64,000 nucleotides of DNA, taken from positions 8,307 to 72,306 of the forward strand of contig PFAP01000011.1 of the NCBI GenBank assembly GCA_002773615.1. The letters are read 5' to 3'. The notes under the pieces are model-generated. The model did not search any database, was not told where the DNA came from, and saw only the letters and a program-made list of their open reading frames with translations. The position numbers were made by a program, and so were the translations under genes. The stretch comes from Candidatus Falkowbacteria bacterium CG10_big_fil_rev_8_21_14_0_10_39_11 (lineage in GTDB: Bacteria; Patescibacteriota; Patescibacteriia; UBA11705). Shown here in pieces: positions 4,438 through 51,638 of the stretch (positions are counted from its first letter, which is position 1; each line of letters starts with the position of its first letter).

Positions 4438-5589
4438 TTAACTCCCCAATTTACCAATAATTTTTTCCGCCTGTTCTCCTTCCACCAACTCCGGCCGACA
4501 ATAATCTTGAATCTCAATCGGATAATATTCCACGTCCGTTACTCCTTCTTTATTCAAATGAAGCATCACCCCCAAGCCTTCTCGAGTGTCCTGGCTCCAC
4601 ATTTGATCAAAAACAAAGTTACCCAAACTATAATAAATATATCTATCTTTATAAATTTCCATTTTTTGCACCACGTGAGGATGATGCCCCAAAACCACAT
4701 CAGCGCCACTATCAATCGCCACGTGAGCAAATTCAGTTTGATGCACCGCTGGATCATTGACATACTCAACACCATCATGCATTGAAACAATAATCAAATC
4801 AACTTTTTCTTCATGTGCTGTATTTATATCAGCAATCAATTGCTCAGTATCCATAAGTGCCATTCCAGCTCTAGCAGTCGTCGCTTTATAACTTTCCGGG
4901 CCATAAGCATAGGACAAAAAAGCAATTTTTATTCCCTTGACTTCTTTTATCAATGGATTTACTATTTTATTCAAATTTTCCCCCACCCCAACATAATCAA
5001 GATTATTTTTTCCCAAGTATTCAAATGTTTTAACCAAACCTTCTGAGCCATAATTCATAATATGGTTGTTGGGTAAACTCAAGATATCAAACCCAGCCAA
5101 AGCCAAAGCTTCAGCTGAACGCGGATCCGCCCGAAAAGAAAAAGAACCATCATCAACCAGTGGACCTTCAATTATCGGACTTTCCAGATTGGCCATCGCA
5201 ATATCGGCCGACTGCACCAACTTCCGAGTCGGCTCAAGACAATACATAAAATCATTCTTGGCGAGCATCTTTCGCTCAACCGCTCGACTCATCATAATAT
5301 CGCCTACGGCGAACAAAGTAATTTCTTCTTTTTCTTTTTTTTGAAATAAAGCAATCTGTTCTTGCTGTATTTTTTTCCACTGATCAAAATCCAAATAAAC
5401 CAACTGCTCCGGCAAATAAACTTTTTCAAACACCAAATCATCCTCAGCCCAAAAAAACACCGCCGAAAATGCTCCGGCCGCAATAATGATCGCTAACACA
5501 ATAACTATAATTAAAGTTGTTGATTTCCGCATACTATTTTTTAGCCTCAGTGCGCAAATAAGCTTCAACAAAAGGCATAATTTCACCAT
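4438..5589 (-). CDS. CapA/PgsA-family protein (poly-gamma-glutamate capsule biosynthesis, metallophosphatase fold), N-terminal TM anchor
   Basis: LFAVGDIMMSR ... NLESPI ... LSLPNNHIMNYG ... GHHPHVVQ motifs typical of the PGA_cap family. The true start is probably the internal MRKSTT. Confidence 0.7.
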   Translation of the reverse strand: MVKLCLLLKLICALRLKNSMRKSTTLIIVIVLAIIIAAGAFSAVFFWAEDDLVFEKVYLPEQLVYLDFDQWKKIQQEQIALFQKKEKEEITLFAVGDIMMSRAVERKMLAKNDFMYCLEPTRKLVQSADIAMANLESPIIEGPLVDDGSFSFRADPRSAEALALAGFDILSLPNNHIMNYGSEGLVKTFEYLGKNNLDYVGVGENLNKIVNPLIKEVKGIKIAFLSYAYGPESYKATTARAGMALMDTEQLIADINTAHEEKVDLIIVSMHDGVEYVNDPAVHQTEFAHVAIDSGADVVLGHHPHVVQKMEIYKDRYIYYSLGNFVFDQMWSQDTREGLGVMLHLNKEGVTDVEYYPIEIQDYCRPELVEGEQAEKIIGKLGS

Positions 5590-6631
5590 CCAGCACTACG
5601 TCTACCTTGTCAGTTTCCTCTCCGGTCCGATGATCTTTGACCATCTTGTATGGATGCAAAACATAAGACCGCGCTTGATTACCCCAAGCCGCTTCAGTGT
5701 ATTCACCTCTCAATTTCTGTTTTTCTTCTTCCGCTTCCGCCTCATAATATTGCTGCAACTTGGACTGCAAATGACGGAAAGCTTTTTCTTTATTTTGAAT
5801 TTGTGATCTTTCATTTTGACAGGACACGACGATACCGGTCGGGATATGGGTTATTCTAACCGCCGAATCAGTTGTATTCACACTTTGACCACCATGACCG
5901 CCGGCTCTAAAAGTATCAATCCGAAGCTCATCAGGATTTATTTCCACCGTCACTTCATCATCAAGCCATGGCAAAACTTCCACCATCGCAAATGAGGTGT
6001 GCCGCATCTTTTCCGCATCAAACGGTGAAATCCGGACCAATCGATGCACACCAGACTCAGCTTTCAAATAACCATAAGCATATCGTCCTTCCACTTCAAA
6101 TTGTACGCTTTTGATACCCGCCTCTTGGCCAGAAGAGATATTGGTTATTTCCGTTTTCCACCCCTGTTTTTCGGCAAATCGTAAATACATCCGCAAAAGC
6201 ATCTCCACCCAATCTTGAGCATCAGTTCCACCGGTCCCGGCATAAAGAGAAACCAGCGCTGACTTTTTGTCATATTTACTCGCCAACAATAAACTCACTT
6301 CCATATGGGCAAATCTTTTTTCCACCTGAGCAATTTGCTTTTCAAAGTCTTCTCGCATATTCACTCCCTGATCTTCAATATCGAGCTTCAACATTTCCAT
6401 CAAATCTTCCAAATCTTGTTTAAACTTTTGCCACAAATCAATCTCATCTCTCAGACCACTGGCTTCCTCAGATATATGACGAGCTTTGTCTTGATTATTC
6501 CAAAATCCAGGTTTACTCATTTCTTGTTCCAAAGCCTCCATCCGCTCCTGTTTTTTCCCAATATCAACAATCCCCCACGCTCGCAGGAGTCTTTGCTGTA
6601 AATCTTCTAATTGTTGCTGCAAATCATTCAT
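5534..6631 (-). CDS. prfB: Peptide chain release factor 2 (no programmed frameshift; single continuous ORF)
   Basis: SPF tripeptide (ISPFDAEKMRHTSFA) and GGQ motif (RAGGHGGQSVNTTDSAVRITHIPTGIVV); 365 aa. Confidence 0.9.
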   Translation of the reverse strand: MNDLQQQLEDLQQRLLRAWGIVDIGKKQERMEALEQEMSKPGFWNNQDKARHISEEASGLRDEIDLWQKFKQDLEDLMEMLKLDIEDQGVNMREDFEKQIAQVEKRFAHMEVSLLLASKYDKKSALVSLYAGTGGTDAQDWVEMLLRMYLRFAEKQGWKTEITNISSGQEAGIKSVQFEVEGRYAYGYLKAESGVHRLVRISPFDAEKMRHTSFAMVEVLPWLDDEVTVEINPDELRIDTFRAGGHGGQSVNTTDSAVRITHIPTGIVVSCQNERSQIQNKEKAFRHLQSKLQQYYEAEAEEEKQKLRGEYTEAAWGNQARSYVLHPYKMVKDHRTGEETDKVDVVLDGEIMPFVEAYLRTEAKK

Positions 6632-6698
6632 AGCTTTAACTCGGAAAGTTTAGCACATCTCATAATTACTGCAAAATTTTTGTAGTTATGGTTAACCA

Positions 6699-6727
6699 TT
6701 GACAATTATATCACTATATGCTTAAAT
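6699..6727 (+). promoter_or_regulatory. Sigma70-like promoter (TTGACA-17-TTAAAT) ahead of the small membrane protein array
   Basis: AACCATTGACA ... TTAAAT motif; the AACCATTGACA block recurs at 7349-7359. Confidence 0.4.
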
Positions 6728-6762
6728 AGCCTATTGATCCTGCGCAAACAAGGAGAAACAAT

Positions 6763-7041
6763 ATGGACACAATTGCAGCTCTATTTTCTCTTGGCACTGT
6801 GGTTTTATTGATTATTTCTCTACAAGCTCGATACAAGAACAATGCAAAACTGATTATTCTCATCATCGCGACGGCAATTCTCTGTGCTGCGGCCAATCTA
6901 TTGGCTTTCATCTTTGTGATTAAAAATGAGAATACTTATTTTTTCAATTTTATTTGTGACTTATTTATTCTCGGTACACAAATTTTACGGTTATATCTAC
7001 TAAAGACCAATCCGCCAACAAGGAGCAACAATGTTCGTTAA
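6763..7041 (+). CDS. Small 3-TM membrane protein (array member 1)
   Basis: 92 aa, three hydrophobic helices, basic C-tail; SD AAGGAGAAAC precedes the ATG. Confidence 0.5.
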   Translation: MDTIAALFSLGTVVLLIISLQARYKNNAKLIILIIATAILCAAANLLAFIFVIKNENTYFFNFICDLFILGTQILRLYLLKTNPPTRSNNVR

Positions 7042-7312
7042 CACCATCACCATGATTATCGGCGTTATTATGACCAATCTAATCCTTATTGGCTTTGCTC
7101 CCAAACTGATACACAACTTCAAATACATTTTGACTATCTTCGCCTTTGCAACTCTATATTTCGTTGGATGTTTGTTGATTTATAAATTTGAACTAGCAGA
7201 AAATTTTGGGTTTACCTTAGGTATGAGCATATTTATTCTCTGCACCAACCTATTTCGACTAATCTTTACCTACCAGATCAGTAAAGAAACTACTGAACAA
7301 ACCACTAACTAA
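7031..7312 (+). CDS. Small 3-TM membrane protein (array member 2; start overlaps member 1 stop, ATGTTCGTTAA)
   Basis: 93 aa, three hydrophobic helices; SD AAGGAGCAAC. Confidence 0.5.
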   Translation: MFVNTITMIIGVIMTNLILIGFAPKLIHNFKYILTIFAFATLYFVGCLLIYKFELAENFGFTLGMSIFILCTNLFRLIFTYQISKETTEQTTN

Positions 7313-7313
7313 T

Positions 7314-7341
7314 CGAGTAAACACTCGATTTTTTTGTTTTT
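7314..7341 (+). terminator. Rho-independent terminator (CGAGTAAACACTCG + T-run)
   Basis: Perfect 5-bp stem followed by ATTTTTTTGTTTTT; near-identical copy at 8028-8051. Confidence 0.55.
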
Positions 7342-7353
7342 CAAACTAACCAT

Positions 7354-7381
7354 TGACAAAAAACCAGTCTTATGATATTAT
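7354..7381 (+). promoter_or_regulatory. Sigma70-like promoter (TTGACA-16-TATTAT)
   Basis: Sits directly after the terminator; same AACCATTGACA context as the 6699 promoter. Confidence 0.4.
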
Positions 7382-7415
7382 TTCAAGTTCCAAACAATCA
7401 ACAAAGGAGACAGCC

Positions 7416-7709
7416 ATGTTCATCCTGATGCTAATCATTGCGATCATGCTCAGTCTAATTTCATTCAGTGTTTATTTTTATTTTTCATTCAAGAAACCTA
7501 CTACCGCTCATCACAAGCACCTAACCGCTCTAATCGTTATCATTATTGTCAATATTCTGGCTTGGGGCTTGGCTCGAGGATATGCTTCATTTAGTCTACC
7601 CCCAGCATCTGCTAATACATTTGGCCATTTAGCCCTTCTCCTCATGTGTATGCTGACAGGAGCTGGACTTGGTTCTGTTTACATGAAGCGAAAGCTTAAC
7701 CCCAATTAA
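7416..7709 (+). CDS. Small 3-TM membrane protein (array member 3; start moved to the ATG with SD AAAGGAGACAGCC)
   Basis: MFILMLIIAIML...; 97 aa, three helices. The upstream in-frame extension in the ORF track lacks an RBS. Confidence 0.5.
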   Translation: MFILMLIIAIMLSLISFSVYFYFSFKKPTTAHHKHLTALIVIIIVNILAWGLARGYASFSLPPASANTFGHLALLLMCMLTGAGLGSVYMKRKLNPN

Positions 7710-7734
7710 TATCACCGCACTACAAAGAGAAATC

Positions 7735-8019
7735 ATGAACCTTGATACCTGGCTGGCATTCTGTACGATTTTCATGGGGATCTCCTACGTTATCATCCCA
7801 AATCTCTGTATTAGTTGGCTGAAAATGAAACCCTTGTATTATCAACCGATTCTTATCGCCGTCTATATCATTAACAGCACCATGAATTTTGTAAATTATG
7901 CGTTGCTCGATGATTGGACCTGGTTATTCTTTCCAATCATCTTCTTGCTACTGACAATCTTGTTCATGAATATTGATCGCTTCAAACGCTGGCAAAGACG
8001 TCGAGAATTGCGTCACTAA
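7735..8019 (+). CDS. Small 3-TM membrane protein (array member 4)
   Basis: 94 aa, three helices, very basic C-tail (RFKRWQRRRELRH). Confidence 0.5.
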   Translation: MNLDTWLAFCTIFMGISYVIIPNLCISWLKMKPLYYQPILIAVYIINSTMNFVNYALLDDWTWLFFPIIFLLLTILFMNIDRFKRWQRRRELRH

Positions 8020-8027
8020 TCATTCTA

Positions 8028-8051
8028 TTAAACCAATCGAGTAACACTCGG
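8028..8051 (+). terminator. Rho-independent terminator (CGAGTAACACTCG + T-run), paralogous to 7314-7341
   Basis: Same stem sequence with a 1-nt difference, followed by TTGACA-17-TAAAAT (8050-8078). Confidence 0.55.
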
Positions 8052-8116
8052 TTTTTTGTTTGACAAATTATAGCTTTCAGCTAAAATAAGAGCAGCACTT
8101 CACAGAAGGAGGCACC

Positions 8117-8365
8117 ATGGATCCAGGAATTGTCCTGATTGTAATTTTCCTTGCTACTTGCTGTTTTTTTCAACTTCCTAGTCAGCTCACCAATCACAAG
8201 TATATCAACCTGGGAATTTGCCTCAGCCTTCTGTCTGTTTCCGCTTATTGCCAATTCAGTTCTTCTGACAAAAACGCCCAAATCGCCGCTTTTATCATTC
8301 TTCTTCTCGGTGGATTCTTTGCCTTCAGAACTTATCGAACCTTTATGCCCCAAAAACAAATCTAA
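8117..8365 (+). CDS. Small 3-TM membrane protein (array member 5)
   Basis: 82 aa; SD GAAGGAGG; three helices. Confidence 0.5.
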   Translation: MDPGIVLIVIFLATCCFFQLPSQLTNHKYINLGICLSLLSVSAYCQFSSSDKNAQIAAFIILLLGGFFAFRTYRTFMPQKQI

Positions 8366-8442
8366 GCTGCCAACATGCAGTTTTTTTCTTTTACTAAACA
8401 AAAAAGCCAATCATAACAGATTGGTCATTTTATTATAAAAAA

Positions 8443-9150
8443 TTATTGTGGCCAATTGCGACCTGGATCAGCTTTGAATGACTGTCTGATTTGGGCAATC
8501 TCACTAAACCGATCATGCATTTCATCATTCACCGTATACTGTCCTTGTTCAAAAGTATAAACCCACCCCCAAATATCATTTCTAGCCACAAGCATAGATG
8601 GTGCTCTTTCCGGGTTCAATTCTACATATTTATTCCACTCTTCCAGACTCCAAACGGTCACCGCAAACAAATCGTCCTGAGCCGGAAAACCAAAATAAAA
8701 AGTCTTTATTGACACTGGTCCGCCATAATCATTACTCGATTCTCTAACTTCAAAATCAGCCCAACTTGCTGGGAAAGTCATCGCAAATTCATAATCTCGA
8801 TTGTAATATTGAACCGTTTGCTCGATAGGGCGTTCATTTTCATCTCCGGTACCCATCATTTCATCCATCATACTGTCAATTTCATCAACCTTCAAATCTG
8901 TAAGACTGCCATCTTCTTCTTGAATTCTATCAGTATTATTCTCTTGATATTCGTTAATTTTACTTTCCAAATTTTTGATCGTGATTTGCTGTTCAGTTAC
9001 GATCGGTTCAAAAATCACATAGGCCAAAAGCCAAACCAAAAGCCCAACAAAAACCGCCGTTACAAACACAGCAATCATCACAGTCTGAATCAATCGATGA
9101 TCTTTTTTTATCTCTTCTTTTTTCTCCGGTGATAATATTTGTTCATCCAT
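8443..9150 (-). CDS. Hypothetical membrane-anchored protein with an acidic extracytoplasmic domain
   Basis: N-terminal TM (VMIAVFVTAVFVGLLVWLLAYVIF) then a 180-aa soluble region; no recognisable motif. Confidence 0.4.
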   Translation of the reverse strand: MDEQILSPEKKEEIKKDHRLIQTVMIAVFVTAVFVGLLVWLLAYVIFEPIVTEQQITIKNLESKINEYQENNTDRIQEEDGSLTDLKVDEIDSMMDEMMGTGDENERPIEQTVQYYNRDYEFAMTFPASWADFEVRESSNDYGGPVSIKTFYFGFPAQDDLFAVTVWSLEEWNKYVELNPERAPSMLVARNDIWGWVYTFEQGQYTVNDEMHDRFSEIAQIRQSFKADPGRNWPQ

Positions 9151-9153
9151 AAA

Positions 9154-9450
9154 TTACTTTAATAAATTTTTCAATACATCAACATCAATATTTTGTACAT
9201 TCCCTGATTGCAGACTATCCACCTGATCAAAAACCCCAGAATAAGATTGAACCATCTCTTTGATTAATGGCGGAAGAAAAATAATCGCCAAAACAATCGG
9301 CAAAACAATCACTACCAACTTGAGAATATTCAAAATTCGAATCCACATTATGTACTTGCGAATTTTTTCCGTATTTTCATAAACCTTTTTAGTGTAATCC
9401 AAATTTCGCTGCAAAAGCATCTCCATTTTCTTGTAATCAAATCCCTCCAT
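9154..9450 (-). CDS. Hypothetical small membrane protein
   Basis: 98 aa with a central hydrophobic hairpin; its start abuts the stop of 8443..9150. Confidence 0.35.
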   Translation of the reverse strand: MEGFDYKKMEMLLQRNLDYTKKVYENTEKIRKYIMWIRILNILKLVVIVLPIVLAIIFLPPLIKEMVQSYSGVFDQVDSLQSGNVQNIDVDVLKNLLK

Positions 9451-9521
9451 ATAGGTATAAAATGCTAAATTATAAATCCTAAATTCTCCGTCTTAGGCGG
9501 ATGCGCCTTTGGCGCATAAAT

Positions 9522-9962
9522 TTAAAAAAAGTCATACAAAATACAGCTCGGTTCATAATACCCGCGAATGTTAAACTTCTCACGAACCCGAGTCATCAAA
9601 TCAGATCTAAAACTTCTGGCTTCAAAAATCATGTCACCACGATAATCATAAAATTGACGTGAAAACCAGTTTAATTTTGGCTTCTCCAAATCAACAACAA
9701 TCCATGAGCCCGAATCATTATTTAATCCCACAATTTTGTCAGCCTCCGTAAAACAACTGCATATCAAATCATTTGATGGTCTATTTGCGGCGGACAACAC
9801 TTGAGAATTTACGCAGTCAGTCAGTTCTTTCTTATAATCATTCAACTTCCAACCCAAATAAGCCGTAAAACAAAGTCTTGGAATAAAAACATATGAAACA
9901 AAAAGAATAACCAAAGCAACCAATATCCAAATAATAATTTTCCCGCCGTATAAATGTTTCAT
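9522..9962 (-). CDS. Hypothetical membrane-anchored protein (start at MKHLYGG)
   Basis: N-terminal TM then a soluble Cys-containing domain; no family recognised. Confidence 0.35.
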   Translation of the reverse strand: MKHLYGGKIIIWILVALVILFVSYVFIPRLCFTAYLGWKLNDYKKELTDCVNSQVLSAANRPSNDLICSCFTEADKIVGLNNDSGSWIVVDLEKPKLNWFSRQFYDYRGDMIFEARSFRSDLMTRVREKFNIRGYYEPSCILYDFF

Positions 9963-10007
9963 ATCCACCTCACAATTTATCGGTTCCTCTAAACTGAGAA
10001 CTCCAGA

Positions 10008-10983: not shown

Positions 10984-11169
10984 CTATTTTTCACAGCTAA
11001 CAGAAAGCATTTTATCAAACTCTTTTCGATCGCCAAATTCGGCCTTTTTACCTTTATTCCAACGATGAACTGGGCTCAAATATCCGACCACACGAGAATA
11101 CACCTCACACTTTTGTCTTTGTAGCTTTTCTGCTGGCATACTTTTTGTTTTTATTTTCTTGGTCGACAA
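10984..11169 (-). CDS. Separate small ORF encoding the NrdD glycyl-radical C-terminal domain (RVVGYL...NKGKKAEFGDR)
   Basis: CEVYSRVVGYLSPVHRWNKGKKAEFGDRKEF matches the class III RNR glycyl-radical signature. It lies 88 bp downstream of the nrdD stop, in a different frame. It has only a TTG or a weak-RBS ATG start. Confidence 0.55.
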   Translation of the reverse strand: MSTKKIKTKSMPAEKLQRQKCEVYSRVVGYLSPVHRWNKGKKAEFGDRKEFDKMLSVSCEK

Positions 11170-11257: not shown

Positions 11258-13315
11258 TTACAGACTCCTTCTAAGCATTTCATCCGCATGCTCCACATAA
11301 CCCATTTCTTCATCACATTTGGGACAAAATTCGTGTTCACCAGACAAATATCCATGAACTGGACAAACACTAAAGGTTGGAGTGATTGTAAAATAAGGTA
11401 ATTTAAAATTTTCAGCAATTTTTTTGACTAAACTCTTGGTACTTTCCGCTGATGGCATATTTTCACCCAAAAAACCATGTAAAACCGTTCCACCGGTATA
11501 GCGAGTCTGCAAATCATCCTGCAATTTCAAAGCTTCAAAGATATCATCTGTATAGCCGACCGGCAATTGTGATGAATTTGTATAATATGGATCAGCTCCC
11601 TCTTCCTGCACCGCCTTTTCATTAGCTACAATAATATCAGGAAACTGTTTTTTGTCCAAACGAGCAAAACGATAAGCTGTACCTTCCGCTGGAGTCGCTT
11701 CCAAATTAAATAGCTGATTAGTCTCATTCTGGTAGTCCATGAGTCGCTCACGCATAAAATCAAGCGTCTGACGAGCGAATTTATGACCTTCAACCGTTGT
11801 AATATCTTGCCCCAACAGATTCAAGGCCGCTTCATTCATACCATTTAGTCCGATAGTATTAAAATGATTCTTCCAATATTCATCAAACCGCTCCTTGATT
11901 CCACTCAAATAATACATCGAGTATGGGTACAAACCATTATTGGTAAACTCTTCCAATACTTTTCGTTTGATATCCAAGCTTTGCTTGGCCAAATCCATCA
12001 ATTCACCAATTCTCTCAAAATATTCTTCCTTATCTTTGGCCACATAGGCAGCCCGAGGCAAGTTAATCGTTACCACTCCTATTGACCCAGTCAATGGATT
12101 GGCTCCAAACAACCCTCCGCCACGTTTTCTAAGCTCACGATTATCAAGCCGCAATCGACAACACATACTACGAGCATCATCAGGACTCATGTCACTATTA
12201 ATAAAATTAGAAAAATAAGGAATACCATACTTTGCGGTCATTTCCATTATCTTGTCAATAATAGCATTGTCCCAATCCCAATCAGCGGTCACATTATAGG
12301 TTGGAATTGGCCAACTAAGCACTCGACCACTCTTATCGCCCTCAATCATCACTTCAATAAAAGCCTGATTAAACATATCCATTTCCATTTGAAATTCACC
12401 ATATTTCTCTTTTTGTGGTTTTCCACCGATAATCACTGACTCCTCAGCCAAACTTTTAGGGACAAATAAGTCCAAAGTAACATTGGTAAAAGGTGTCTGA
12501 AAACCAACTCTGGTTGGCACATTGATATTGTACAAAAACATCTGGAGCTGCTGTCTTACTTGCTCGTAATCCAAGTTGTCATAACGAATAAACGGCGCGG
12601 CCAAAGTATCAAAACTGGAAACAGCCTGAGCGCCAGCAGCTTCGCCTTGTAAAGTATAGAAGAAATTGACCAACTGGCTGAGAGCTGTAGCAAAATGTTT
12701 TGGCGGTTTGCTCTGAACCTTTCCTCTCACCCCACCAAAACCACGCATAATTAAATCTTTAAAATCCCACCCACAACAATATGGCGCCAAAAGCTGTAAA
12801 TCATGAATGTGAAAATCACCATTCACATGAGCATCTTTGATATTTGGCGGATAAATCTTATTGAGCCAATAATGAGAGCTAATCGTAGAGGCGACATAAT
12901 TGTTCAATCCTTGCAGCGAATAATCCATATTGGAATTCTCTTTCACTCGCCAATCCTTGAGCTTCAAATAATCATCCATCAACTCATCAGAATTTATCAT
13001 GGCATCAAGATCTCTCATCTTAGCGTGTTGATCTCGATAAATAATATACGCCTTGGCCGCCTGAATATACTTGGCTTCAATCAATGTATTCTCGACCATA
13101 TCTTGAGCCTCTTCTACCGCTGGGATAGTTCGCTCATGAAATTTCTCATTCAATTTCTTGATTACCAAATCAGTCAATGATTCAGCCTCTTCATTTCCCC
13201 CTGATTTAGTTGCCTGCAATGCTTTAAAAATTGCCGTTTGAAGTTTCGCTTGGTCAAAATCAACAATGCGTCCATCACGCTTGCGAATTTGAATTATTTT
13301 GTTGCCTGCGTACAT
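11258..13315 (-). CDS. nrdD: Anaerobic ribonucleoside-triphosphate reductase catalytic body (ATP-cone + class III RNR barrel + C-terminal Zn site), lacking an in-frame glycyl-radical loop
   Basis: N-terminal ATP-cone (KIIQIRKRDGRIVDFDQAKLQTAI), long class III RNR core, C-terminal CPVHGYLSGEHEFCPKC. Confidence 0.85.
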   Translation of the reverse strand: MYAGNKIIQIRKRDGRIVDFDQAKLQTAIFKALQATKSGGNEEAESLTDLVIKKLNEKFHERTIPAVEEAQDMVENTLIEAKYIQAAKAYIIYRDQHAKMRDLDAMINSDELMDDYLKLKDWRVKENSNMDYSLQGLNNYVASTISSHYWLNKIYPPNIKDAHVNGDFHIHDLQLLAPYCCGWDFKDLIMRGFGGVRGKVQSKPPKHFATALSQLVNFFYTLQGEAAGAQAVSSFDTLAAPFIRYDNLDYEQVRQQLQMFLYNINVPTRVGFQTPFTNVTLDLFVPKSLAEESVIIGGKPQKEKYGEFQMEMDMFNQAFIEVMIEGDKSGRVLSWPIPTYNVTADWDWDNAIIDKIMEMTAKYGIPYFSNFINSDMSPDDARSMCCRLRLDNRELRKRGGGLFGANPLTGSIGVVTINLPRAAYVAKDKEEYFERIGELMDLAKQSLDIKRKVLEEFTNNGLYPYSMYYLSGIKERFDEYWKNHFNTIGLNGMNEAALNLLGQDITTVEGHKFARQTLDFMRERLMDYQNETNQLFNLEATPAEGTAYRFARLDKKQFPDIIVANEKAVQEEGADPYYTNSSQLPVGYTDDIFEALKLQDDLQTRYTGGTVLHGFLGENMPSAESTKSLVKKIAENFKLPYFTITPTFSVCPVHGYLSGEHEFCPKCDEEMGYVEHADEMLRRSL

Positions 13316-21013: not shown

Positions 21014-24000
21014 TTATTGAATTTCAAAATCCGTACTTGGTTTATTTCTAATTGAATAATAATTAAAGGTCTCAGCCTCTGTCCTATAAGAAATTCTAGA
21101 TCGCTTAAAGTCCCGGTTAAGATAATCATACAAATAACTATACAAATCAATCGGTGAAGATGTTGGAATCTGTATATCAACAATCAGACTATCAGAATTA
21201 TAACACGTATTTGGATCACTACCTCTAGCACAAACTGAACACAATTGATTGCCATTATCTTCAAAACATTGATGAGCTGGGATCAAACACTTCTTACCAT
21301 TATCTCCACAGGCCTCTCCGGTGAATGAGCTATTGGAACTTGGTTCATAACGAGCAATCTTATTGATCGGATCAACCGGTAATCTTGTCCCCAAATCATT
21401 GGCTAGGGTTGACTGCCAACTGGGCCAGGTAGAAGATGCAACATTCCGAATATACGAACCACTTTCAACGGTCGGTAAAGTCGTGTAACGATCATAGTAC
21501 GCCTGTAAAGATCTCTTTATATCCGTAATATCATTTATTCTCTGAATATCCCTTCTGATTGCAAATTGTACATCAGAATCTGTCACATTAATATTAAACA
21601 TCATCGAATCAATCATCTGAGCAAACATATCAATCGTACGACTATTGGCACCCAAATTATAGCCCAAAACAAAGATATAATTCCGCATCTCGCCACCAGT
21701 CAAATTACCAGCCGAGATATATACCGTATTTCCATCCTTAATCCCCTTATAACATACTTCTTGCCCAAATTTTGTATCAAGGCCACAATACACATTCAAA
21801 TCAGAACTGGATTGTCCAGCTTGAGGCACCTGATTTTTATACCATTCACGAACAGACAAATTATCAGGATTATCATAAATTCGCAGTGAAATCACATCAT
21901 CAACAAAGTCATTTGTATTCACCTCATTCACAATATCATCTGATCTGATCATCAAATATTGTTTTTGTAATGTGTCAACATCAGCTCCCAACTGTGACTC
22001 TACTACCCGAAGTAGTGGTAAATCATCCATTTTATTATTTACTTGTCCATTATCACGACAATATCGCAAATGAATATTTCGACCATCATTTCCATCATCC
22101 CACCCAATACTGGCACTATCCGCTGGCACTCTCCAGGGATTTTCACAAACATATGCACTGACTTGGCCTGATCCGACTAAAGTCGCTCCAATTTCACCAA
22201 AATAATCATCATCTATAATTGCTGCTTCAGCTGAAATTTCCGTATTTCCATTTTTATTATTAGCCATAGCCGCATCCCAAGAACCTGGAAGCTCTGTAAT
22301 ATCAACAATATCCCTATCTCCACTTTCCCAACTTGACCAATCCCAATCATACCGGCCAGCAAAAGGCTGAATTATTGTATTGCCCGACTTGGCCAGATGT
22401 GCAACTTCCCAAACCTCATCCCGCTCAGAAACTTGTTTCATCGCTGGAGAAATACCAACAGAATCAAAATGGCAATAATCTGATCCAACATTAAACCTGA
22501 AATTTTGATCTGGAATCAACAATTGACAATTATTTTCAATATTTTTAAGTCGGATCTCATAATGAGCAACCTTAAGAACGTCATTGGTTGTTATTTCAAT
22601 TTGACTAACATTTCTACCTCCCACATCCAGTACTCTTGATGTAATACTATAATTATCTGACTCTTCGAGACACCATTCAGCCGCCCGAGCGTCACGTCCG
22701 AATAATTTATTTAAATAATTCCAAATTTTCATCCCAACCTGAACTGGAGCACTACCACAACTATCAGCCTGATATCGCAATTCAATCAATTGATTCAAAT
22801 TTACTCCCGGTTCATGAAGCTGCTCCATCAATAAATCATACTGAACCACGATCACCGCATTCGGACATGTTTGAGATCCATCTTCACTGGTCATATCTAT
22901 CAAAGAAGGACTAATCAACTCTGCTCTTGCCGGATTGTTCGGATCACAAGATGGTGGTGGCGGTCCACCCAAACCAGAATAAACGTATGTAAGCAAACTA
23001 TCTTCAGACAAACTCTCTCCCACATCACCACTTTCTTCTAAATATGAAACCGTATTTTCCAACGTACCACGAATATTGACCGTTTGTCTGGTCGCACCAT
23101 CTGGCAAATAACCCAAAACCGTCACCAATGAATATGGTGCCCCATAAGACTCAAAACCGCCCCCAGACTGATCCAATTCACAAACCGGATCTTCGCCTGG
23201 CTCCACTTGTCCATTGGCACAAAAGGCAGCATTAGCCACGTTTGAGCCTCCATTCAAGCAACCATTGGTACACCAATCCGGAATTCTACAAACACAACTA
23301 TCCGTTCCGAATTCACAGACCTGTCCTTCATTATCAGTACAAACCGCTTCACACTCTTCAGTATAATTATTATAAGTTTCTAATTGTCCATTACCACAAC
23401 AATTTTCCTGATTATCTTCATTACAACCATCAAAATTTTTAAGTACACATTTATTTGAACAAAATTGGTCTTCATATGATTGGCAAACACAATTTTGATC
23501 TCCTGGCTGACAAGAGGCAAAAGAAATATTACCGTCAGAATTACGTTGCAAACTACCGTCCGCCGCTCGCACTGGAACTCGACAATTAACCGCCACCGGT
23601 TCACACTCTTCACCATTTTCGACCTGTCCATTACCACAAATCGATCCTATATATTCCGAACTTCCTTTATATAAACAATTATTATCTAGTCCGAACTGAC
23701 GATTTATTGCCGCTGAACCAAAATCATCATCTTCACCCAACTCCACTTTTCCATTACCACATTCAAAACCGGCTGAATTTGATCCTTCATTCAAACATTG
23801 TTTACTGCAACCATCTTGATTATTTCCATTACCATCATCACAATCTTCGCCCGGATCGACAATCTTATTACCACAACAAGCAATTTCATTGCCGGCAAAG
23901 CAAATCTCTGTCCCCGCTCTGAGACATTGATCAGTACACGCCGCGCCACCATCACACTCTTCACCAGATTCAACAACATTATTGCCACAAACGGCCTGAT

Positions 24001-27000
24001 AACGAACAGAACCTTCACTTAGACAATTAGACGTACAAGAAACGGCTCGCTGTGGAGAGTATAATGTCTTTAACATTGCAATCAATTTATTATCTCGCTC
24101 CGCCCTAGCGTCAACCCCGACAAAATTTTGCGAATTCACATCCGTATAATATTGTACTTCACCCGTTGTCTCTTCCCAATCCCAATCATACTGTCTGGCA
24201 CTGAGGCGTTGACCTCCAGAACTACAAAGATCCGGTTCAGAATACGGCACAGCACTATAAAGTATCTGCTCACCAGCTACCGTCGACAAATATTCTCCCG
24301 GACTAACCGTCACTCGATCAGGCCGACAAAAACCTCCATCTTCTCGAGTTTTGAAGACAAAACTAAACGAATCAAAGGTCGATGCGCTGTTAACATTTCG
24401 ATCAGTCAAAACACAACTTTGACAATTATCCGGGAAAGTACAGCTACAACCATCATCTCCATATTCACAACTCTGACGCTCTACCAAACTGCAAACATCT
24501 TTACAAACCAAATCCTTTTCGCTTGGACATTCAGCGCCTGTCGAAGCCAAAGGCACACAGGTACAAGCCGGAGCACTTTCCTTGCATTGAGTTTCTGTTC
24601 CAGCACAATAAGTCAATTTAATACACTCTCCTTTATCTGGATCCGCATCAAAACAGGTTACATCTGGAACAAATTGAAACTTACCAGATTCTCGACACGT
24701 ACAATCAGGTCCACTTTCTGTACAAGATTTTTGAGGGTCTTCTTCACAGGATCTTTGTGGTTGACAATCACAGCCAGCGTTATTATCTGTACAATATTCA
24801 GTAGTATTTTCTTGACAAACTTTTGGTTCAACACAAGTACAATCCAGAGAGTCAGCCGTACATTTTTGAGTTACATCTTCCAAGCAATATGAAGCACACT
24901 GCGGAGAATCACACTCTCTCGGTTCTCCACACTGACATGATGAAGACAATATATTTGGTTTATTTTTATTATCATTAAAATAATCATTACACACTTCGAG
25001 TGCAGAAACCCCTACACTACCAACGAAATCCACCTTCCCGGCTTTTGAACAACTTTCAACCTCACATTGCTCTTGCAATTGAGCCGACCCTAAATAAGTA
25101 TCCAAATTACCATCACCACAACAACCGGTAACGCCATCTTTACAAGCTGTAAAACCAACCAATCGACAATCATTGGAACAAAATTTGTTATTAGCCAGAG
25201 AACAGACACAATTATCCTCGCCTGAAATACATGTTTCGTTTGTTTTTTCATTCAAACATATCGCTTCGCATTGCTCTCCAGCATCAGATTCAATCACACC
25301 ATTACCACAAGTCCCAATTTGTGATCGAGTATTAAAATTCAAGCTGGTCAATTCTTTTGCACTGACATTTGTTACATCACCACGAATAACCAATCGATAA
25401 TATTTGGCCGGATCCAACACAGGATTAGGGTAAATACGCAATCGATTACAGACTTCACCATAATCAGCCACCATAGATACACCGGTTGTTGAGTCACAAT
25501 CGATTTCTCCGGGCTGGAAGTTTGCCAACTTATTTTCTTTCCCCGCAATCGACAAGCAATCACGACTTTCACACTCATACAAGCCAACAGATCCTGGATT
25601 ATTCTTCAAATAATCAGCGGGAATATAACTATTAAACATAGCCCCAAGCTCAGCGTTTACACAAGCGCCTTCACAATCCGGCCAATAATCAATTACTTTG
25701 GGGTCTGCCAATGAGATCGACAATCTAGCCTCATCCTGAAATGATTGAGCCCCAACCAAACCAGAAACTTGAATTTCTCCATCATCTCCCGGCGGTGTTT
25801 CAATCACCTCAGCATCTGGATTAACAACAAAATAGGCTGTATCTTTTCTAGATCCAGACACAAACAATCGATTGATTCTATCACCATATCGAGCCACCAG
25901 CCAATTCCAATTTTCATCAGAAACATCTATAATTCCACAATTATTCGCCTGACCGGAGACCATATATTTTTCTTGATCAACCACACTATTCAAGACACCT
26001 TCACTTGGATTCACCACCACAGAATCAATTGTACAGTCTGTGGCCGCTGTTTTAAAATTCCAAACATAATCATTTAATAATTCTTGAACATCATCGCCAG
26101 GGTCAGGCGCATTTCGGACACCAGCTTTCACAATCACCCGATACCAGGTATTCGGTACCAGATCATAATTAAGTAAATTGACTTGAGTCACTACATTATT
26201 ATCATAAGTTGAAGTTAAAACTTCATTCAATAAAATCCGACCGCTTGCATCACGTCCAGTAGCCACAAAATTATAATCTGTAGTCAAACAGTTACTACTA
26301 TCACAAAGCTGCAAATTACATTCACTTCCAGACTCACTACAACGTCTGATTTCCACTCGATCACCATCAATAAACGACTCTGAATCCATTTCCATATTAA
26401 AAGTAAAGCTGGCCAACCCGTTTGGACAAGCCGTCTGAGTATTGTTACGTGGAGATGGTGATTCATCAAAACCGCCAAGACTACATTCTCGATTAATCAC
26501 TTTAGGAATTTTAGGAATATTACCAGTACTAAAATACCAACCGTACTCACACGTAGTTGCTTGAGCTTCACACAGTTCAGCCGCGCTACAATAAGAATTT
26601 TGACAACAAACCTCACCCGAGCCACAACTATCAACCGTACATCGGCCGACATTAAATTGAACCGGATTACTATCGATACCACCTTGTTCAATCACCAACT
26701 CGCCACTTCTAGCATCCGGCGGAACAGATACCCCAGAAATTTGCGTACTGGTCCATTCAGCAGATTGTAAATTAAATCCCTCAACTATTGATGGCACACC
26801 AGGCGCAGCCGAAGCAAATTTGACCTTACCGGGTGTATTGCCAAATCCAACACCCTGAATAGTAATACTCGTCCCCGGAGGTCCATTGTCTGGAGTTATT
26901 GAACAAATACCAGGAGTCAATGCAAGATTATTATCAACTGAATAGGGTACCGAAACACTACCCTCGCTGTTTGCAATTTCTAAATCATAAGACCCTGTAA

Positions 27001-29080
27001 CCAAATCTGGAATGGTTACTTGAATACTGGTATTTGACCAATTATTAGCACAAGAAGTTAAAGCCGGAGTCCGAACGTTATCTCGAATAAATGTCACCGT
27101 ACCACTAGCACCAAAATTACTACCCTTAATCGTAATAATTTGTCCCTTAGGCGCAGTTTGCGGCAAAACTGACTGAATCACAATCGAACTATCACTTTCC
27201 CCGACCACAAAATTCACTGGATTGCTATAAAAATCATCCCGACCAACTTGAACGGTTTTGTTTCCTGACGATATAAACGGCACTTGAACTTCACGTATCA
27301 CATCATCTGACCATATTCCAGTCAGCAATGCATCACCATTAAAGTAAATACTACCATCTGCTCCAAAATGTCTTCCAGTCAAAAGAAGACGATCTCCGGG
27401 AGCTCCATTATTTTCTCGAGTTTCTTCATTCACCACCGAACACAAAGCGATTCTATTATTTCCACTTTCAGTAATCACCAAATCATTCTTCCAACCGGGT
27501 GCATTTGGATCAGCCGTATTGTGCCAATTACCTCTATTATTAAAAATTTGTATTGGACCAGTAGCAACATTTGGTACAGACACCACCACCTGTCGATCAC
27601 TCCAACTATCACGACCACAAACCGGAGCCGCTTCAACCCCATTGATTAAAACTTTTGCTTCTTGAGCAAAAACCCCAAAGTTTTTTCCATAAATAGTGAT
27701 AAAACCACTCGTCGGTGATTCAGCCGGCACTACATTGGTAATCAAAGGATATGGCCACAACGAACAGACAGACGAACACTGCTCAACTCCATCAACCGTT
27801 GAACAGTTACTCGGAGTACAAGTATAAGTACAATCATCCCCCGTACATTCAGAACAATTATCAACCTCACACTCAGGCAAAGAACAATCAAACTCACCAC
27901 CATCATTAAAACAACTATTGGAAGCCACCAAATATCGTCCAGCTGCGGTTGATTCATTATTACTAACATCACTCACCTTCACGGTTCCAGTGTGCCAACC
28001 CAAATCAAAACCGATAGTGGATGCATTCAAAACTGAACTATATGATAATGGATTTTCATCTTCAAAAACCACCTGCTGACACAAAACCCCTTGTCCGGTT
28101 TGAGCTGTCGGACAAAGTTGCAAGCTAGCCAAACCACTGGCGTCGGCCGCTGTTATCGGAAAATCCTCTTGGGCTCCAACTCGAACTTGCTGTGGGCTGG
28201 GAATAACCGATACTGTTGGCGCCAACAAATCACAACTATTTGTAGTCGTAAATTCTACTTGTCGACAATAACCCTGCAACCTATTTGGACATGCCACCAC
28301 ACTACCATTTTGATCTTGTAATTCTAATACTTTAATTCGATATGTTTTTTCTCCCTGAAAACAACTTGTCGCTTCACATCCAACTGGACATTCACCATTT
28401 GAAACAAAAGTCACCTTTCTATCACTTAAATCATAAGAACCCACCACCTCAACTTCTGACTCTACGTCACCGTCTTTTACAACCTCATACACTTTAATGT
28501 TATCTTTGGCATTTTGATATTCATTAGTCGGTAATGGCGTTCGACCATTCGGGAACGTAACCTGGACCACTGCATTAACCGGAGTATTAGCTCCACGAGG
28601 AGCAATACCAACGGAAAACCCTGTCACACCACCACCGCCACCGCCACCATCACCACCACCACCACCGCCACCCTCGGTGGTTGAAACCACTCCAGTCGCT
28701 TCACTAAGTCGATTAATTACATAACTGGTAATAGAAAATGCTGACATAATAATCACCATGCCAATAATACCATTGATAATCCATTTTTTAGCCTTCTCAA
28801 CTGACGTTTCAGCTCCACCACTAGTCATGTACAAAAATCCACCGTACAACACAATAGCCAAAGAAACCACTCCTAAAAATCCCAAAAATATTCTCAAAAT
28901 TCTACCGATAATTATTCTCGGATCCTCATTACCCAAAACGGTCGCCGACCCAACAGCCTCAAGCCCCACCCCAACATCATTTGACTGTTGAGCATGCAAT
29001 AATTCTGGAAGGACAAAAAGACCACCCATCACAATGAAGAGCACAATCAACACTCCAATTATTTTATTTTTATGTTTCAT
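21014..29080 (-). CDS. Giant (2688 aa) cell-surface protein: N-terminal T4SS-pilin-like (VirB2/TrbC-like) membrane domain, Gly-rich linker, IPT/TIG-like repeats, multiple Myxococcus-type Cys-rich repeats
   Basis: N-terminus LGNEDPRIIIGRILRIFLGFLGVVSLAIVLYGGFLYMTSGGAETSVEKAKKWIINGIIGMVIIMSAFSITSYVINRL; GGGGGGGDGGGGGGG linker. IPT/TIG-like strands (ITIKGSNFGASGTVTF, ITIQGVGFGNTPGKVKF). CGNGxxExGEECDxG repeats (CGNGVIESDAGEQCE, CGNGQVENGEECE, CGNKIVDPGEDCDDGNGNNQDGCSKQC). Confidence 0.7.
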   Translation of the reverse strand: MKHKNKIIGVLIVLFIVMGGLFVLPELLHAQQSNDVGVGLEAVGSATVLGNEDPRIIIGRILRIFLGFLGVVSLAIVLYGGFLYMTSGGAETSVEKAKKWIINGIIGMVIIMSAFSITSYVINRLSEATGVVSTTEGGGGGGGDGGGGGGGVTGFSVGIAPRGANTPVNAVVQVTFPNGRTPLPTNEYQNAKDNIKVYEVVKDGDVESEVEVVGSYDLSDRKVTFVSNGECPVGCEATSCFQGEKTYRIKVLELQDQNGSVVACPNRLQGYCRQVEFTTTNSCDLLAPTVSVIPSPQQVRVGAQEDFPITAADASGLASLQLCPTAQTGQGVLCQQVVFEDENPLSYSSVLNASTIGFDLGWHTGTVKVSDVSNNESTAAGRYLVASNSCFNDGGEFDCSLPECEVDNCSECTGDDCTYTCTPSNCSTVDGVEQCSSVCSLWPYPLITNVVPAESPTSGFITIYGKNFGVFAQEAKVLINGVEAAPVCGRDSWSDRQVVVSVPNVATGPIQIFNNRGNWHNTADPNAPGWKNDLVITESGNNRIALCSVVNEETRENNGAPGDRLLLTGRHFGADGSIYFNGDALLTGIWSDDVIREVQVPFISSGNKTVQVGRDDFYSNPVNFVVGESDSSIVIQSVLPQTAPKGQIITIKGSNFGASGTVTFIRDNVRTPALTSCANNWSNTSIQVTIPDLVTGSYDLEIANSEGSVSVPYSVDNNLALTPGICSITPDNGPPGTSITIQGVGFGNTPGKVKFASAAPGVPSIVEGFNLQSAEWTSTQISGVSVPPDARSGELVIEQGGIDSNPVQFNVGRCTVDSCGSGEVCCQNSYCSAAELCEAQATTCEYGWYFSTGNIPKIPKVINRECSLGGFDESPSPRNNTQTACPNGLASFTFNMEMDSESFIDGDRVEIRRCSESGSECNLQLCDSSNCLTTDYNFVATGRDASGRILLNEVLTSTYDNNVVTQVNLLNYDLVPNTWYRVIVKAGVRNAPDPGDDVQELLNDYVWNFKTAATDCTIDSVVVNPSEGVLNSVVDQEKYMVSGQANNCGIIDVSDENWNWLVARYGDRINRLFVSGSRKDTAYFVVNPDAEVIETPPGDDGEIQVSGLVGAQSFQDEARLSISLADPKVIDYWPDCEGACVNAELGAMFNSYIPADYLKNNPGSVGLYECESRDCLSIAGKENKLANFQPGEIDCDSTTGVSMVADYGEVCNRLRIYPNPVLDPAKYYRLVIRGDVTNVSAKELTSLNFNTRSQIGTCGNGVIESDAGEQCEAICLNEKTNETCISGEDNCVCSLANNKFCSNDCRLVGFTACKDGVTGCCGDGNLDTYLGSAQLQEQCEVESCSKAGKVDFVGSVGVSALEVCNDYFNDNKNKPNILSSSCQCGEPRECDSPQCASYCLEDVTQKCTADSLDCTCVEPKVCQENTTEYCTDNNAGCDCQPQRSCEEDPQKSCTESGPDCTCRESGKFQFVPDVTCFDADPDKGECIKLTYCAGTETQCKESAPACTCVPLASTGAECPSEKDLVCKDVCSLVERQSCEYGDDGCSCTFPDNCQSCVLTDRNVNSASTFDSFSFVFKTREDGGFCRPDRVTVSPGEYLSTVAGEQILYSAVPYSEPDLCSSGGQRLSARQYDWDWEETTGEVQYYTDVNSQNFVGVDARAERDNKLIAMLKTLYSPQRAVSCTSNCLSEGSVRYQAVCGNNVVESGEECDGGAACTDQCLRAGTEICFAGNEIACCGNKIVDPGEDCDDGNGNNQDGCSKQCLNEGSNSAGFECGNGKVELGEDDDFGSAAINRQFGLDNNCLYKGSSEYIGSICGNGQVENGEECEPVAVNCRVPVRAADGSLQRNSDGNISFASCQPGDQNCVCQSYEDQFCSNKCVLKNFDGCNEDNQENCCGNGQLETYNNYTEECEAVCTDNEGQVCEFGTDSCVCRIPDWCTNGCLNGGSNVANAAFCANGQVEPGEDPVCELDQSGGGFESYGAPYSLVTVLGYLPDGATRQTVNIRGTLENTVSYLEESGDVGESLSEDSLLTYVYSGLGGPPPPSCDPNNPARAELISPSLIDMTSEDGSQTCPNAVIVVQYDLLMEQLHEPGVNLNQLIELRYQADSCGSAPVQVGMKIWNYLNKLFGRDARAAEWCLEESDNYSITSRVLDVGGRNVSQIEITTNDVLKVAHYEIRLKNIENNCQLLIPDQNFRFNVGSDYCHFDSVGISPAMKQVSERDEVWEVAHLAKSGNTIIQPFAGRYDWDWSSWESGDRDIVDITELPGSWDAAMANNKNGNTEISAEAAIIDDDYFGEIGATLVGSGQVSAYVCENPWRVPADSASIGWDDGNDGRNIHLRYCRDNGQVNNKMDDLPLLRVVESQLGADVDTLQKQYLMIRSDDIVNEVNTNDFVDDVISLRIYDNPDNLSVREWYKNQVPQAGQSSSDLNVYCGLDTKFGQEVCYKGIKDGNTVYISAGNLTGGEMRNYIFVLGYNLGANSRTIDMFAQMIDSMMFNINVTDSDVQFAIRRDIQRINDITDIKRSLQAYYDRYTTLPTVESGSYIRNVASSTWPSWQSTLANDLGTRLPVDPINKIARYEPSSNSSFTGEACGDNGKKCLIPAHQCFEDNGNQLCSVCARGSDPNTCYNSDSLIVDIQIPTSSPIDLYSYLYDYLNRDFKRSRISYRTEAETFNYYSIRNKPSTDFEIQ

Positions 29081-51571: not shown

Positions 51572-51601
51572 TTGACAACATATAAAAAAATATGATATAA
51601 T
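51572..51601 (+). promoter_or_regulatory. Sigma70-like promoter (TTGACA-18-TATAAT)
   Basis: Consensus hexamers 38 bp upstream of the next start codon. Confidence 0.45.
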
Positions 51602-51638
51602 GTTATGTAATCAAAATCCTGAATACAAGGAGAGAAAC

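Follow-up and report, generated by a model that had tools for sequence, protein, structure and literature searches.

Class I holins, such as S105 of phage lambda, have about 80-110 amino acids (aa), three helices in an N-out/C-in orientation and a short, strongly basic cytoplasmic C-terminal tail, and holins as a class have a common architecture without sequence similarity. The bacteriocin-immunity membrane proteins of Firmicutes are also small, multi-pass and fast-evolving, and are often encoded in series with their own promoters and Shine-Dalgarno (SD) sites. Among small transporters, SemiSWEET/PQ-loop proteins have about 90 aa and three helices, and SemiSWEETs work as dimers, while the paired multidrug-resistance genes EbrAB and YkkCD are two adjoining, co-transcribed small-membrane-protein genes whose products would form a heterodimer. 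Bacterial ORFans and "transmembrane-first" de novo proteins (PMC12315717, PMC7005711) are taxon-restricted, short, T-rich, helix-forming and weakly adapted in codon usage. Here we describe a locus that resembles each of these in part: an array of five consecutive open reading frames (ORFs) of 82-97 aa, named g1 to g5, on the plus strand at positions 6690-8400 of a 64-kb stretch of DNA (the window) from a metagenome-assembled genome of Candidatus Falkowbacteria (Candidate Phyla Radiation (CPR)/Patescibacteria), recovered from groundwater (CG10 sample name, locus tags COT97). The signals that flank these genes suggest that a two-gene unit was duplicated in tandem.

In size, topology and sequence plasticity the array appears nearest to class I holins and small immunity proteins, and in gene pairing to the paired small transporters, but it has neither the profile matches nor the genomic context of holins, immunity proteins or transporters. 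Unlike class I holin genes, it has no endolysin, spanin or phage context, is present in five copies behind their own or a shared housekeeping-type promoter, lacks a dual-start motif and gives no PHROG or Pfam holin match (best E 0.29-0.32). Unlike the immunity genes of Firmicutes, it has no bacteriocin, exporter or regulator gene nearby and no profile match, and its host belongs to the CPR. The array pairs could heterodimerise, but no PQ-loop/MtN3 profile, PDB sequence or fold match was found and the array is not conserved in any relative. EbrAB and YkkCD are four-helix proteins of opposite topology that fall in a clear Pfam family, whereas the array proteins have three predicted helices and identical predicted topology, and their only related match is a sub-threshold one to EamA (E 0.011, 16.5 bits against a cut-off of 28.2). 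The ORFan-like properties listed above are all found in the array, which differs from typical ORFans in the survival of flanking regulatory anchors, pointing to duplication and divergence within one genome.

The five genes and their products

The five genes, each predicted to encode a three-helix membrane protein, are listed below with their SD sites.

6763-7041, plus strand: g1, 92 aa, GenBank PIR94241 (hypothetical), SD AAGGAG at 6750-6755
7031-7312, plus strand: g2, 93 aa, PIR94242, SD AAGGAG at 7020-7025, within the end of g1
7416-7709, plus strand: g3, 97 aa, PIR94243, SD AAGGAG at 7404-7409
7735-8019, plus strand: g4, 94 aa, PIR94244, weak SD AAAGAG at 7724-7729
8117-8365, plus strand: g5, 82 aa, SD GAAGGAGG at 8105-8112

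The genes g1 and g2 overlap by 11 nucleotides (nt), with the SD of g2 inside the 3' end of g1, which suggests that their translation may be coupled, and g4 starts 25 nt past the stop codon of g3. As a preliminary description of this DNA had proposed, all five products are small proteins with three hydrophobic segments and a basic loop and tail. Summed over the five proteins, lysine and arginine number 30 in loop 1 and the C-terminal tail and 4 in the N-terminus and loop 2, a bias present in each of the five, and acidic residues are biased the other way (4 versus 9). By the established positive-inside rule, this distribution predicts that all five proteins are N-out/C-in, with the basic loop 1 and C-terminal tail inside. 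An AlphaFold2 model of g2, built on an alignment of four paralogues, also has three helices, at low confidence (predicted local distance difference test 67, predicted template modelling score 0.39). Global alignment modes placed the five proteins in register with a common loop-1 pattern, P..[NH]xK[YHL][IL], which lacks statistical support, and the automatic MAFFT alignment misplaces g3.

The existence of the array is confirmed and lies far beyond chance, as judged from shuffled sequences, the placement of the signals and the scarcity of comparable ORFs. In 2000 composition-preserving shuffles no strand ever held five ATG ORFs of 82 codons or more, the maximum being 3. A search of all six frames of the window for small ORFs that start with ATG, follow an SD and have two or more hydrophobic segments yields g1, g2, g3 and g5 alone, and the 882 kb taken from 80 related genomes hold 11 comparable ORFs, scattered and never arrayed. 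In strand-specific codon models the annotated frame was the best of the six for each of the five genes.

Gene callers differ in their treatment of the array. In GenBank g1 to g4 are all hypothetical proteins and g4 is given as a truncated form of 64 aa (PIR94244, 7825-8019), while g5 has no exact counterpart in the protein collection that was searched. In place of g5, JGI and Logan call an antisense ORF of 109 aa (8081-8410, minus strand), which has a TTG start and no SD and begins within a terminator hairpin. We preferred g5 for its SD of -11.7 kcal/mol, its promoter and terminator and an architecture like that of the family. In one JGI call g3 starts at a TTG within the promoter and is 118 aa long, and one ENA assembly lists no genes anywhere across the array.

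Promoters, terminators and ribosome-binding sites

The array is predicted to form three units, promoter-g1-g2-terminator, promoter-g3-g4-terminator and promoter-g5-terminator, in which terminator and promoter sequences are duplicated. The predicted signals are as follows.

6677-6727, plus strand: promoter region P1, with the relic of a T-run, AACCATTGACA at 6694-6704, the -35 box TTGACA at 6699-6704 and a weak -10 candidate, TTAAAT, at 6722-6727
7311-7337, plus strand: terminator T1, an 8-bp hairpin AATCGAGTAAACACTCGATT (7311-7330) that starts in the g2 stop codon, then a T-run
7353-7381, plus strand: promoter P2, TTGACA, 17 nt, TATTAT, with a TG extension, 11 of 12 consensus positions
8035-8059, plus strand: terminator T2, hairpin AATCGAGTAACACTCGGTT (8035-8053), then a T-run, a near-copy of T1
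8060-8087, plus strand: promoter P3, TTGACA, 16 nt, TAAAAT, 11 of 12 consensus positions
8364-8390, plus strand: terminator T3, hairpin 8364-8383, starting in the g5 stop codon
8407-8424, minus strand: terminator-like hairpin of the convergent 235-aa gene (8443-9150, minus strand), which closes the locus

The near-verbatim duplication of the terminator and promoter signals noted in the preliminary description was borne out. T2 differs from T1 by one deleted loop base and one A-to-G change that preserves a G-U pair, and the chance expectation of the T1/T2 hairpin pattern in the window is 0.00. The 11-mer AACCATTGACA occurs at exactly two sites in the 64 kb, 6694 and 7348, and the exact 13-mer TAACCATTGACAA is common to the P1 region and 7347-7359. 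P1 was read directly from the sequence, since its -10 element lacks the consensus A at position 2 and was not listed by the promoter scan. Sites that match at least 11 of the 12 promoter consensus positions number nine on both strands of the 64 kb, including P2 and P3, and the -35 box of P3 is placed differently from that of P1 and P2 relative to the shared cassette. The folding energy of T1 is -8.2 kcal/mol (z -3.1), and those of T1 to T3 are -7 to -8 kcal/mol. The layout of three units also stood, with the addition that g5 has a terminator of its own (8364-8383). In T3 the stem size, loop size and T-tail are like those of T1 and the stem sequence is different; counting covariation on three terminators did not demonstrate its homology to T1 and T2. 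No dispersed copy of the terminator cassette was found elsewhere in the window, and a pattern scan of JGI metagenomes, which matched the second cassette variant only, returned the organism's own contig only.

Each gene had been credited with an AAGGAG-type SD. This is correct for g1, g2 and g3 (AAGGAG) and for g5 (GAAGGAGG), where the SD lies 4-7 nt ahead of the ATG, whereas the site of g4 is weak; the anti-SD duplex energies of g1 to g5 are -8.5, -7.7, -8.7, -2.9 and -11.7 kcal/mol. For the 40 other genes of the window at their annotated starts the median is +0.3 kcal/mol and 3 reach -6 or stronger, against 4 of the 5 array genes; a permissive count that allowed any start in the first 40 codons gave a background of at most 15 of 47. 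The A+T content upstream of the other genes is 81%, and in the closest relatives SDs are just as scarce. The array is thus part of a minority class of genes with a 5' leader and an SD site. This class also includes a hypothetical gene for a 222-aa membrane protein (51639-52304, in the region 51572-52304), which gave no Pfam match and has a sigma-70 promoter with 12 of 12 consensus positions and the ribosome-binding site (RBS) ACAAGGAGAGAAACATG, in a regulatory style like that of the array. Because that gene shares the style, the likeness of the RBSs of the five genes is by itself no proof of common descent, and the five SD-bearing genes should not be counted as five independent events, since they probably descend from one unit. 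In several genes of the window a TATAAT box lies only 6-10 nt 5' of the ATG (for example those with starts at 48172, 58549 and 61816, and that of 11258 to 13315), which suggests that their mRNAs may be leaderless. The related loci L018, L019 and L021 resemble the window in their scarce SDs, A+T-rich upstream regions and such boxes.

Proposed duplication of a two-gene unit

The cassette between g2 and g3 (7305-7359) is a mosaic of the other two spacers. Its 5' half (hairpin, T-run and GTTTTTCAAACTA) is about 84% identical over 45 nt to the spacer between g4 and g5, at an offset of 722-724, and its 3' half (TTTTTGT...TAACCATTGACAA) is 76% identical over 29 nt to the region upstream of g1, with a core of 13/13, at an offset of 654. 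Such a mosaic is what would be expected at the junction of a tandem duplication of a promoter-geneA-geneB-terminator unit. Global alignment of the two units pairs CCGCCAACAAGGAGCAACAATG, at the junction of g1 and g2, with CCGCACTACAAAGAGAAATCATG, at that of g3 and g4, and three anchors, the promoter, the internal RBS and the terminator, are collinear in both. From these regulatory anchors, we consider the proposed tandem duplication to be well supported.

The preliminary description had combined this duplication with rapid divergence of the coding sequences, and here too the anchors and the nearly random coding similarity agree with it, although the similarity between g1 and g3 and between g2 and g4 that a two-gene duplication might have left was not found at the protein level (Smith-Waterman shuffles, z 0.8 and 1.7). 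The DNA identity between the units is 52.7% overall, compared with 49.3 +/- 0.9% for codon-shuffled controls, and the windows between the anchors are mostly at 40-60%. The products had also been described as having no obvious sequence identity, which is true of most pairs; the exception is the weak similarity of g1 and g2, whose proteins are 27% identical over 77 in-register residues. Their Smith-Waterman z is 4.8 and falls to 3.2 if the shuffling treats helices and loops apart. At the DNA level this pair gives a z of 4.1, and 20 nt of SD context, at an offset of 270, are 90% identical. An earlier single-gene duplication of the g1/g2 type is thus plausible. The pair g3 and g5 gives a Smith-Waterman z of 4.4, but in an alignment that is out of register.

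The coding sequences have diverged more than the adjoining non-coding signals, while open frames, length, helix number and topology have been retained. The maintenance of this architecture amid coding divergence argues for selection on architecture, combined with relaxed or diversifying selection on sequence.

Taken together, we lean towards the explanation that the five are real, species-restricted genes, strongly expressed and arranged in coupled pairs, that arose by tandem duplication and divergence and have an accessory membrane role; we give this whole package somewhat better than even credence. Three sigma-70-type promoters would yield three mRNAs, g1-g2, g3-g4 and g5, each ending at an intrinsic terminator, and translation would start at canonical SD sites, of a kind that is missing from most genes of the window. 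The promoter-geneA-geneB-terminator unit would have been duplicated in tandem, probably after the duplication of a single gene, and the coding sequences would then have diverged to near-random similarity, with the promoter, internal RBS and terminator still recognisable. Translational coupling may deliver the partners in equimolar amounts, and the partners (g1 with g2, g3 with g4, g5 with itself) may assemble in the membrane as small oligomers of 3+3 helices. The proteins may serve an accessory, dispensable role in the cell envelope through generic properties of membrane proteins, as neither enzymes nor housekeeping subunits.

Several points weigh against this explanation. Log-odds of codon usage against background are 0.01-0.16 per codon for the five genes and 0.13-0.34 for established genes of the window; only g2 reaches the established range, where it exceeds no more than the lowest gene, and the values of the array overlap the top of the range of spurious antisense ORFs. 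In addition, composition-corrected BLASTP gave no alignment between g1 and g2, and hhalign gave probabilities below 1% when the g1/g2 profile was compared with g3, g4 and g5; because of these two null results, coding homology is inferred from the flanking anchors and not from the coding sequence. The anchors are themselves largely functional motifs, and the RBS style ACAAGGAGA is also seen at the unrelated gene at 51639. No orthologues were found in any search. Finally, the assembly in pairs and any activity in the membrane are pure inference.

The frequency of G at the first codon position is 0.13-0.20 in the array, at the low end compared with the multi-helix membrane-protein genes of the window (0.19-0.37), and the GAVDE content is 13-21%. 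These low values and the weak codon signal fit young, orphan or foreign genes, and allow a small chance that not all of the ORFs are translated.

Searches for homologues

A word-indexed search, run singly with g1, g4 and g3 against 5.8 billion protein clusters, found nothing but the query each time. A HMMER profile search of 1.84 billion representatives, standing for about 15 billion proteins, was made with g2, g1, g4 and g5 as input, and returned only input proteins (g2, g1 and g4). Coverage of g5 was through this profile and a scan of viral contigs, which was negative, and g2 was used as a single query against the PDB and was otherwise covered by the HMMER profile alone. Searches of PDB sequences with g5 and g2 (phmmer) gave no match, and Foldseek found nothing significant in the PDB and BFVD. 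No match of the five proteins in Pfam, NCBIfam, PHROGs or PADLOC rose above threshold, and those below it were hydrophobic. Comparisons with the 80 related loci by tblastn, and with phage and plasmid collections by blastn, were negative, and no paralogues were found elsewhere in the 64-kb window. As judged by these searches, the five genes are a taxon-restricted (ORFan) membrane-protein family with no homologue outside one species and, if their products are functional, would constitute a new orphan family of minimal three-helix membrane proteins.

Genomic context

By release factor 2 (RF2, prfB), the nearest genomes are Falkowbacteria RIFOXYC2_FULL_36_12, with 70% identity, and then a few Patescibacteria with 61-64%. 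In these relatives the gene order, on one strand, is nrdD, nrdG, a membrane protein of about 100 aa, (one variable gene), an HtrA-like Trypsin_2+PDZ protease, prfB and PGA_cap. The window retains nrdD, nrdG, the protein of about 100 aa (98 aa), prfB and PGA_cap, and the slot of the HtrA-like gene is taken by the five plus-strand genes of the array together with a minus-strand gene for an orphan membrane protein of 235 aa. The array is thus a gain specific to this lineage, at a variable position within a block that is conserved elsewhere, and its products are not conserved housekeeping subunits. The preliminary description had allowed that orthologous loci might reveal such subunits; no orthologues were found, and the relatives carry the HtrA-like gene instead. 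We also considered the array as the antisense of a decayed HtrA-like gene and rejected this, as tblastn with the proteases of three relatives found no remnant.

The neighbours of the array are prfB, the PGA_cap gene and the genes of the hypothetical 235-, 98- and 148-aa membrane proteins, followed by nrdG; no lysin, bacteriocin, exporter, regulator, toxin or phage gene was found near the array. The 98-aa protein, encoded between the 235- and 148-aa genes, is conserved beside prfB and nrdG in many Patescibacteria. The 235- and 148-aa proteins (region 8443-9968, minus strand) were not found in the 80 related loci, and no wider search was made for them. The array is the sole cluster of plus-strand genes in the first 34 kb. 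Its GC content (0.38) and its bias of C over G at the third codon position match those of local plus-strand genes, and the T content of its region is 34%, against 29% for the window.

The assemblies of JGI, ENA and Logan yielded 17 contigs that each carry part of the array (L001-L017), and these do not differ from one another within it (100% identity). One site in the array is variable in the population.

7344-7348, no strand: site of an insertion like an insertion sequence (IS), with target duplication (A)ACTA, 4 nt 5' of the g3 -35 box

The insertion is present in part of the population, with left junctions in L004, L005 and L008 and right junctions in L013-L015, while L002, L011, L016 and L017 span the empty site; filled and empty sites occur together in one sample. 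Its ends, TGTAATGTGCCGACACATATGGCGG... and ...CCGCCAAATGTGTGTGCCTAAAACA, are imperfect inverted repeats of the TGT...ACA type, and the ends carry ORF fragments, MAKTIKEERLRWVLPIVRKEIRLV... and ...NNLEHCGLDGKTPNEFL, for which no Pfam or NCBIfam match was obtained; no copy of the insertion was found in the window. It looks like an IS element. Contig L005 (ERZ17912254 NODE_125832) matches positions 6180-7348 of the window at 99-100% identity over g1, g2 and the first ~140 codons of prfB, then switches at the conserved GGTDAQDW motif to another RF2 (identical through residue 141 and clearly divergent thereafter), followed by an ftsE-like gene; this contig would be either a chimeric assembly of low coverage (3x) or a recombinant. 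Recurring contig ends (7044 and ~8407-8423) were considered as structural variants and rejected, as they carry no foreign sequence; they may come from reassembly of the same read sets.

Other features of the window were also recorded. The prfB gene (5534-6631, minus strand) is one unbroken ORF of 365 aa, without the programmed +1 frameshift site common in many bacteria. NrdD, the anaerobic ribonucleotide reductase, appears split into an ORF of 685 aa (11258-13315, minus strand), which ends after CPKCDEE..., and one of 51 aa (10984-11139, minus strand) with the SRVVGY glycyl-radical motif; the gap is 118 nt in the window, the same split is present in L018 and L021 with a gap of ~100-130 nt, and no Rfam family was detected in the gap. 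A giant ORF of 2688 aa with a few hydrophobic segments lies at 21014-29080 (minus strand). GC skew is strongly and uniformly negative over all 64 kb (-0.08 to -0.38), independently of gene orientation, and third-position G/C usage flips with the gene strand over the whole window.

Alternative explanations

All of the more specific explanations rank below the favoured package. The best placed, although we judge it improbable, is that the genes arose recently, as proto-genes born de novo from DNA rich in T and poor in G, and were then amplified in tandem, with little or no established function. The "transmembrane-first" concept (PMC7005711), discussed for bacteria in PMC12315717, would account for the absence of homologues among about 15 billion proteins, for the T-rich region with its low first-position G and GAVDE content, for codon usage intermediate between real genes and noise, and for the fact that the RBS region of g2 encodes the tail of g1. 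However, the near-consensus promoters, SDs and terminators and the uniform topology look evolved and not incipient, and the persistence of open frames after saturating divergence argues for selection. The syntenic site of L018, L019 and L021 holds the HtrA-like gene, with no similarity to the array and no non-genic precursor, although this is a weak test, since the RF2 of the nearest outgroup is only 70% identical.

Less probable still is the family that the preliminary description had named, of immunity, holin-like or toxin-resistance proteins under diversifying selection, which would block or form a membrane lesion in an arms race. The size, three helices, N-out/C-in orientation and highly basic C-terminal tail resemble those of class I holins and small immunity proteins, and strong dedicated promoters and coding sequences that have diverged beyond the adjoining regulatory DNA would also suit such a role. 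This label found no support in Pfam, NCBIfam, PHROGs (where the best holin match has the E value given above), PADLOC, the PDB, fold searches or the neighbouring genes, which are prfB, PGA_cap and hypothetical membrane proteins and not a lysin, bacteriocin, exporter, toxin or phage gene. Moreover, no similarity to phages, plasmids or viral contigs was detected, and the population contigs have zero sequence variation in the array.

We assign a similarly low probability to the horizontal acquisition of the array as a cassette from an unsampled SD-using donor, whether a bacterium, a plasmid or a phage. The excess of SDs at -6 kcal/mol or stronger over the other genes of the window and the SD-poor closest relatives are consistent with such an origin, as are the orientation against all neighbours in the first 34 kb, the replacement of a conserved syntenic gene, the atypical codon usage and the IS-like element inserted there in part of the population. 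A recent transfer is at odds with the GC content and third-position bias, which match those of local plus-strand genes, and the fixed allele has no att-like flanking repeats, integrase or mobile genes. The phage, plasmid, viral and 15-billion-protein collections contain no match, and the native membrane-protein gene at 51639 has the same promoter and SD style.

A SemiSWEET-like or other transporter of 3+3 helices, in which each gene pair would encode a heterodimeric carrier importing a metabolite for a host with a reduced genome, is very unlikely. Proteins of about 90 aa with three helices and N-out orientation, gene pairs with predicted translational coupling, polar residues (N, Q, D, T and S) within the helices and a proline near the end of helix 1 in g2-g5 would agree with it, but no PQ-loop/MtN3 profile matched even at E <= 10, neither PDB sequences nor Foldseek against the PDB gave a match, and the conservation in relatives expected for a transporter family was not found. 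Least probable of all is that the region is non-coding, its ORFs being by-products of a pyrimidine-rich regulatory or junk spacer, which would fit the weak codon-usage signal, the lack of homologues and the disagreement of gene callers over g4 and g5, but not the failure of 2000 shuffles to yield five ORFs of at least 82 codons, the correctly spaced SD before each ORF, the bracketing by promoters and terminators, the positive-inside rule obeyed alike by all five proteins and the lack of comparable ORFs elsewhere in the window.

Implications for the origin of ORFans

The origin of bacterial ORFans is an open question, and a regulatory remnant is normally not expected to persist after an ORFan has diverged (PMC12315717, a review). 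The flanks of the array may be such a remnant, and the route of "rapid divergence of paralogues" would become testable once closer genomes or expression data exist. Relative to PMC12315717, PMC7005711 and PMC11293555, the distinctive value of the array would lie in the surviving regulatory scaffold that documents the duplication. The locus is also useful for the study of translation initiation and gene calling in the CPR, where pipelines truncated g4 and missed g5. A further reading, which we put forward tentatively and consider possible but doubtful, is that the array is a rare preserved record of the formation of bacterial ORFans, in which a unit was duplicated in place, the coding sequences ran away, selection kept the open frames, the helices and the topology, and the duplicated promoter, RBS and terminator are the sole proof of common descent. 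If this is true, the function of these proteins would rest on generic membrane biophysics and not on specific residues, and the family would use SD-led translation in a lineage that has largely abandoned the SD.

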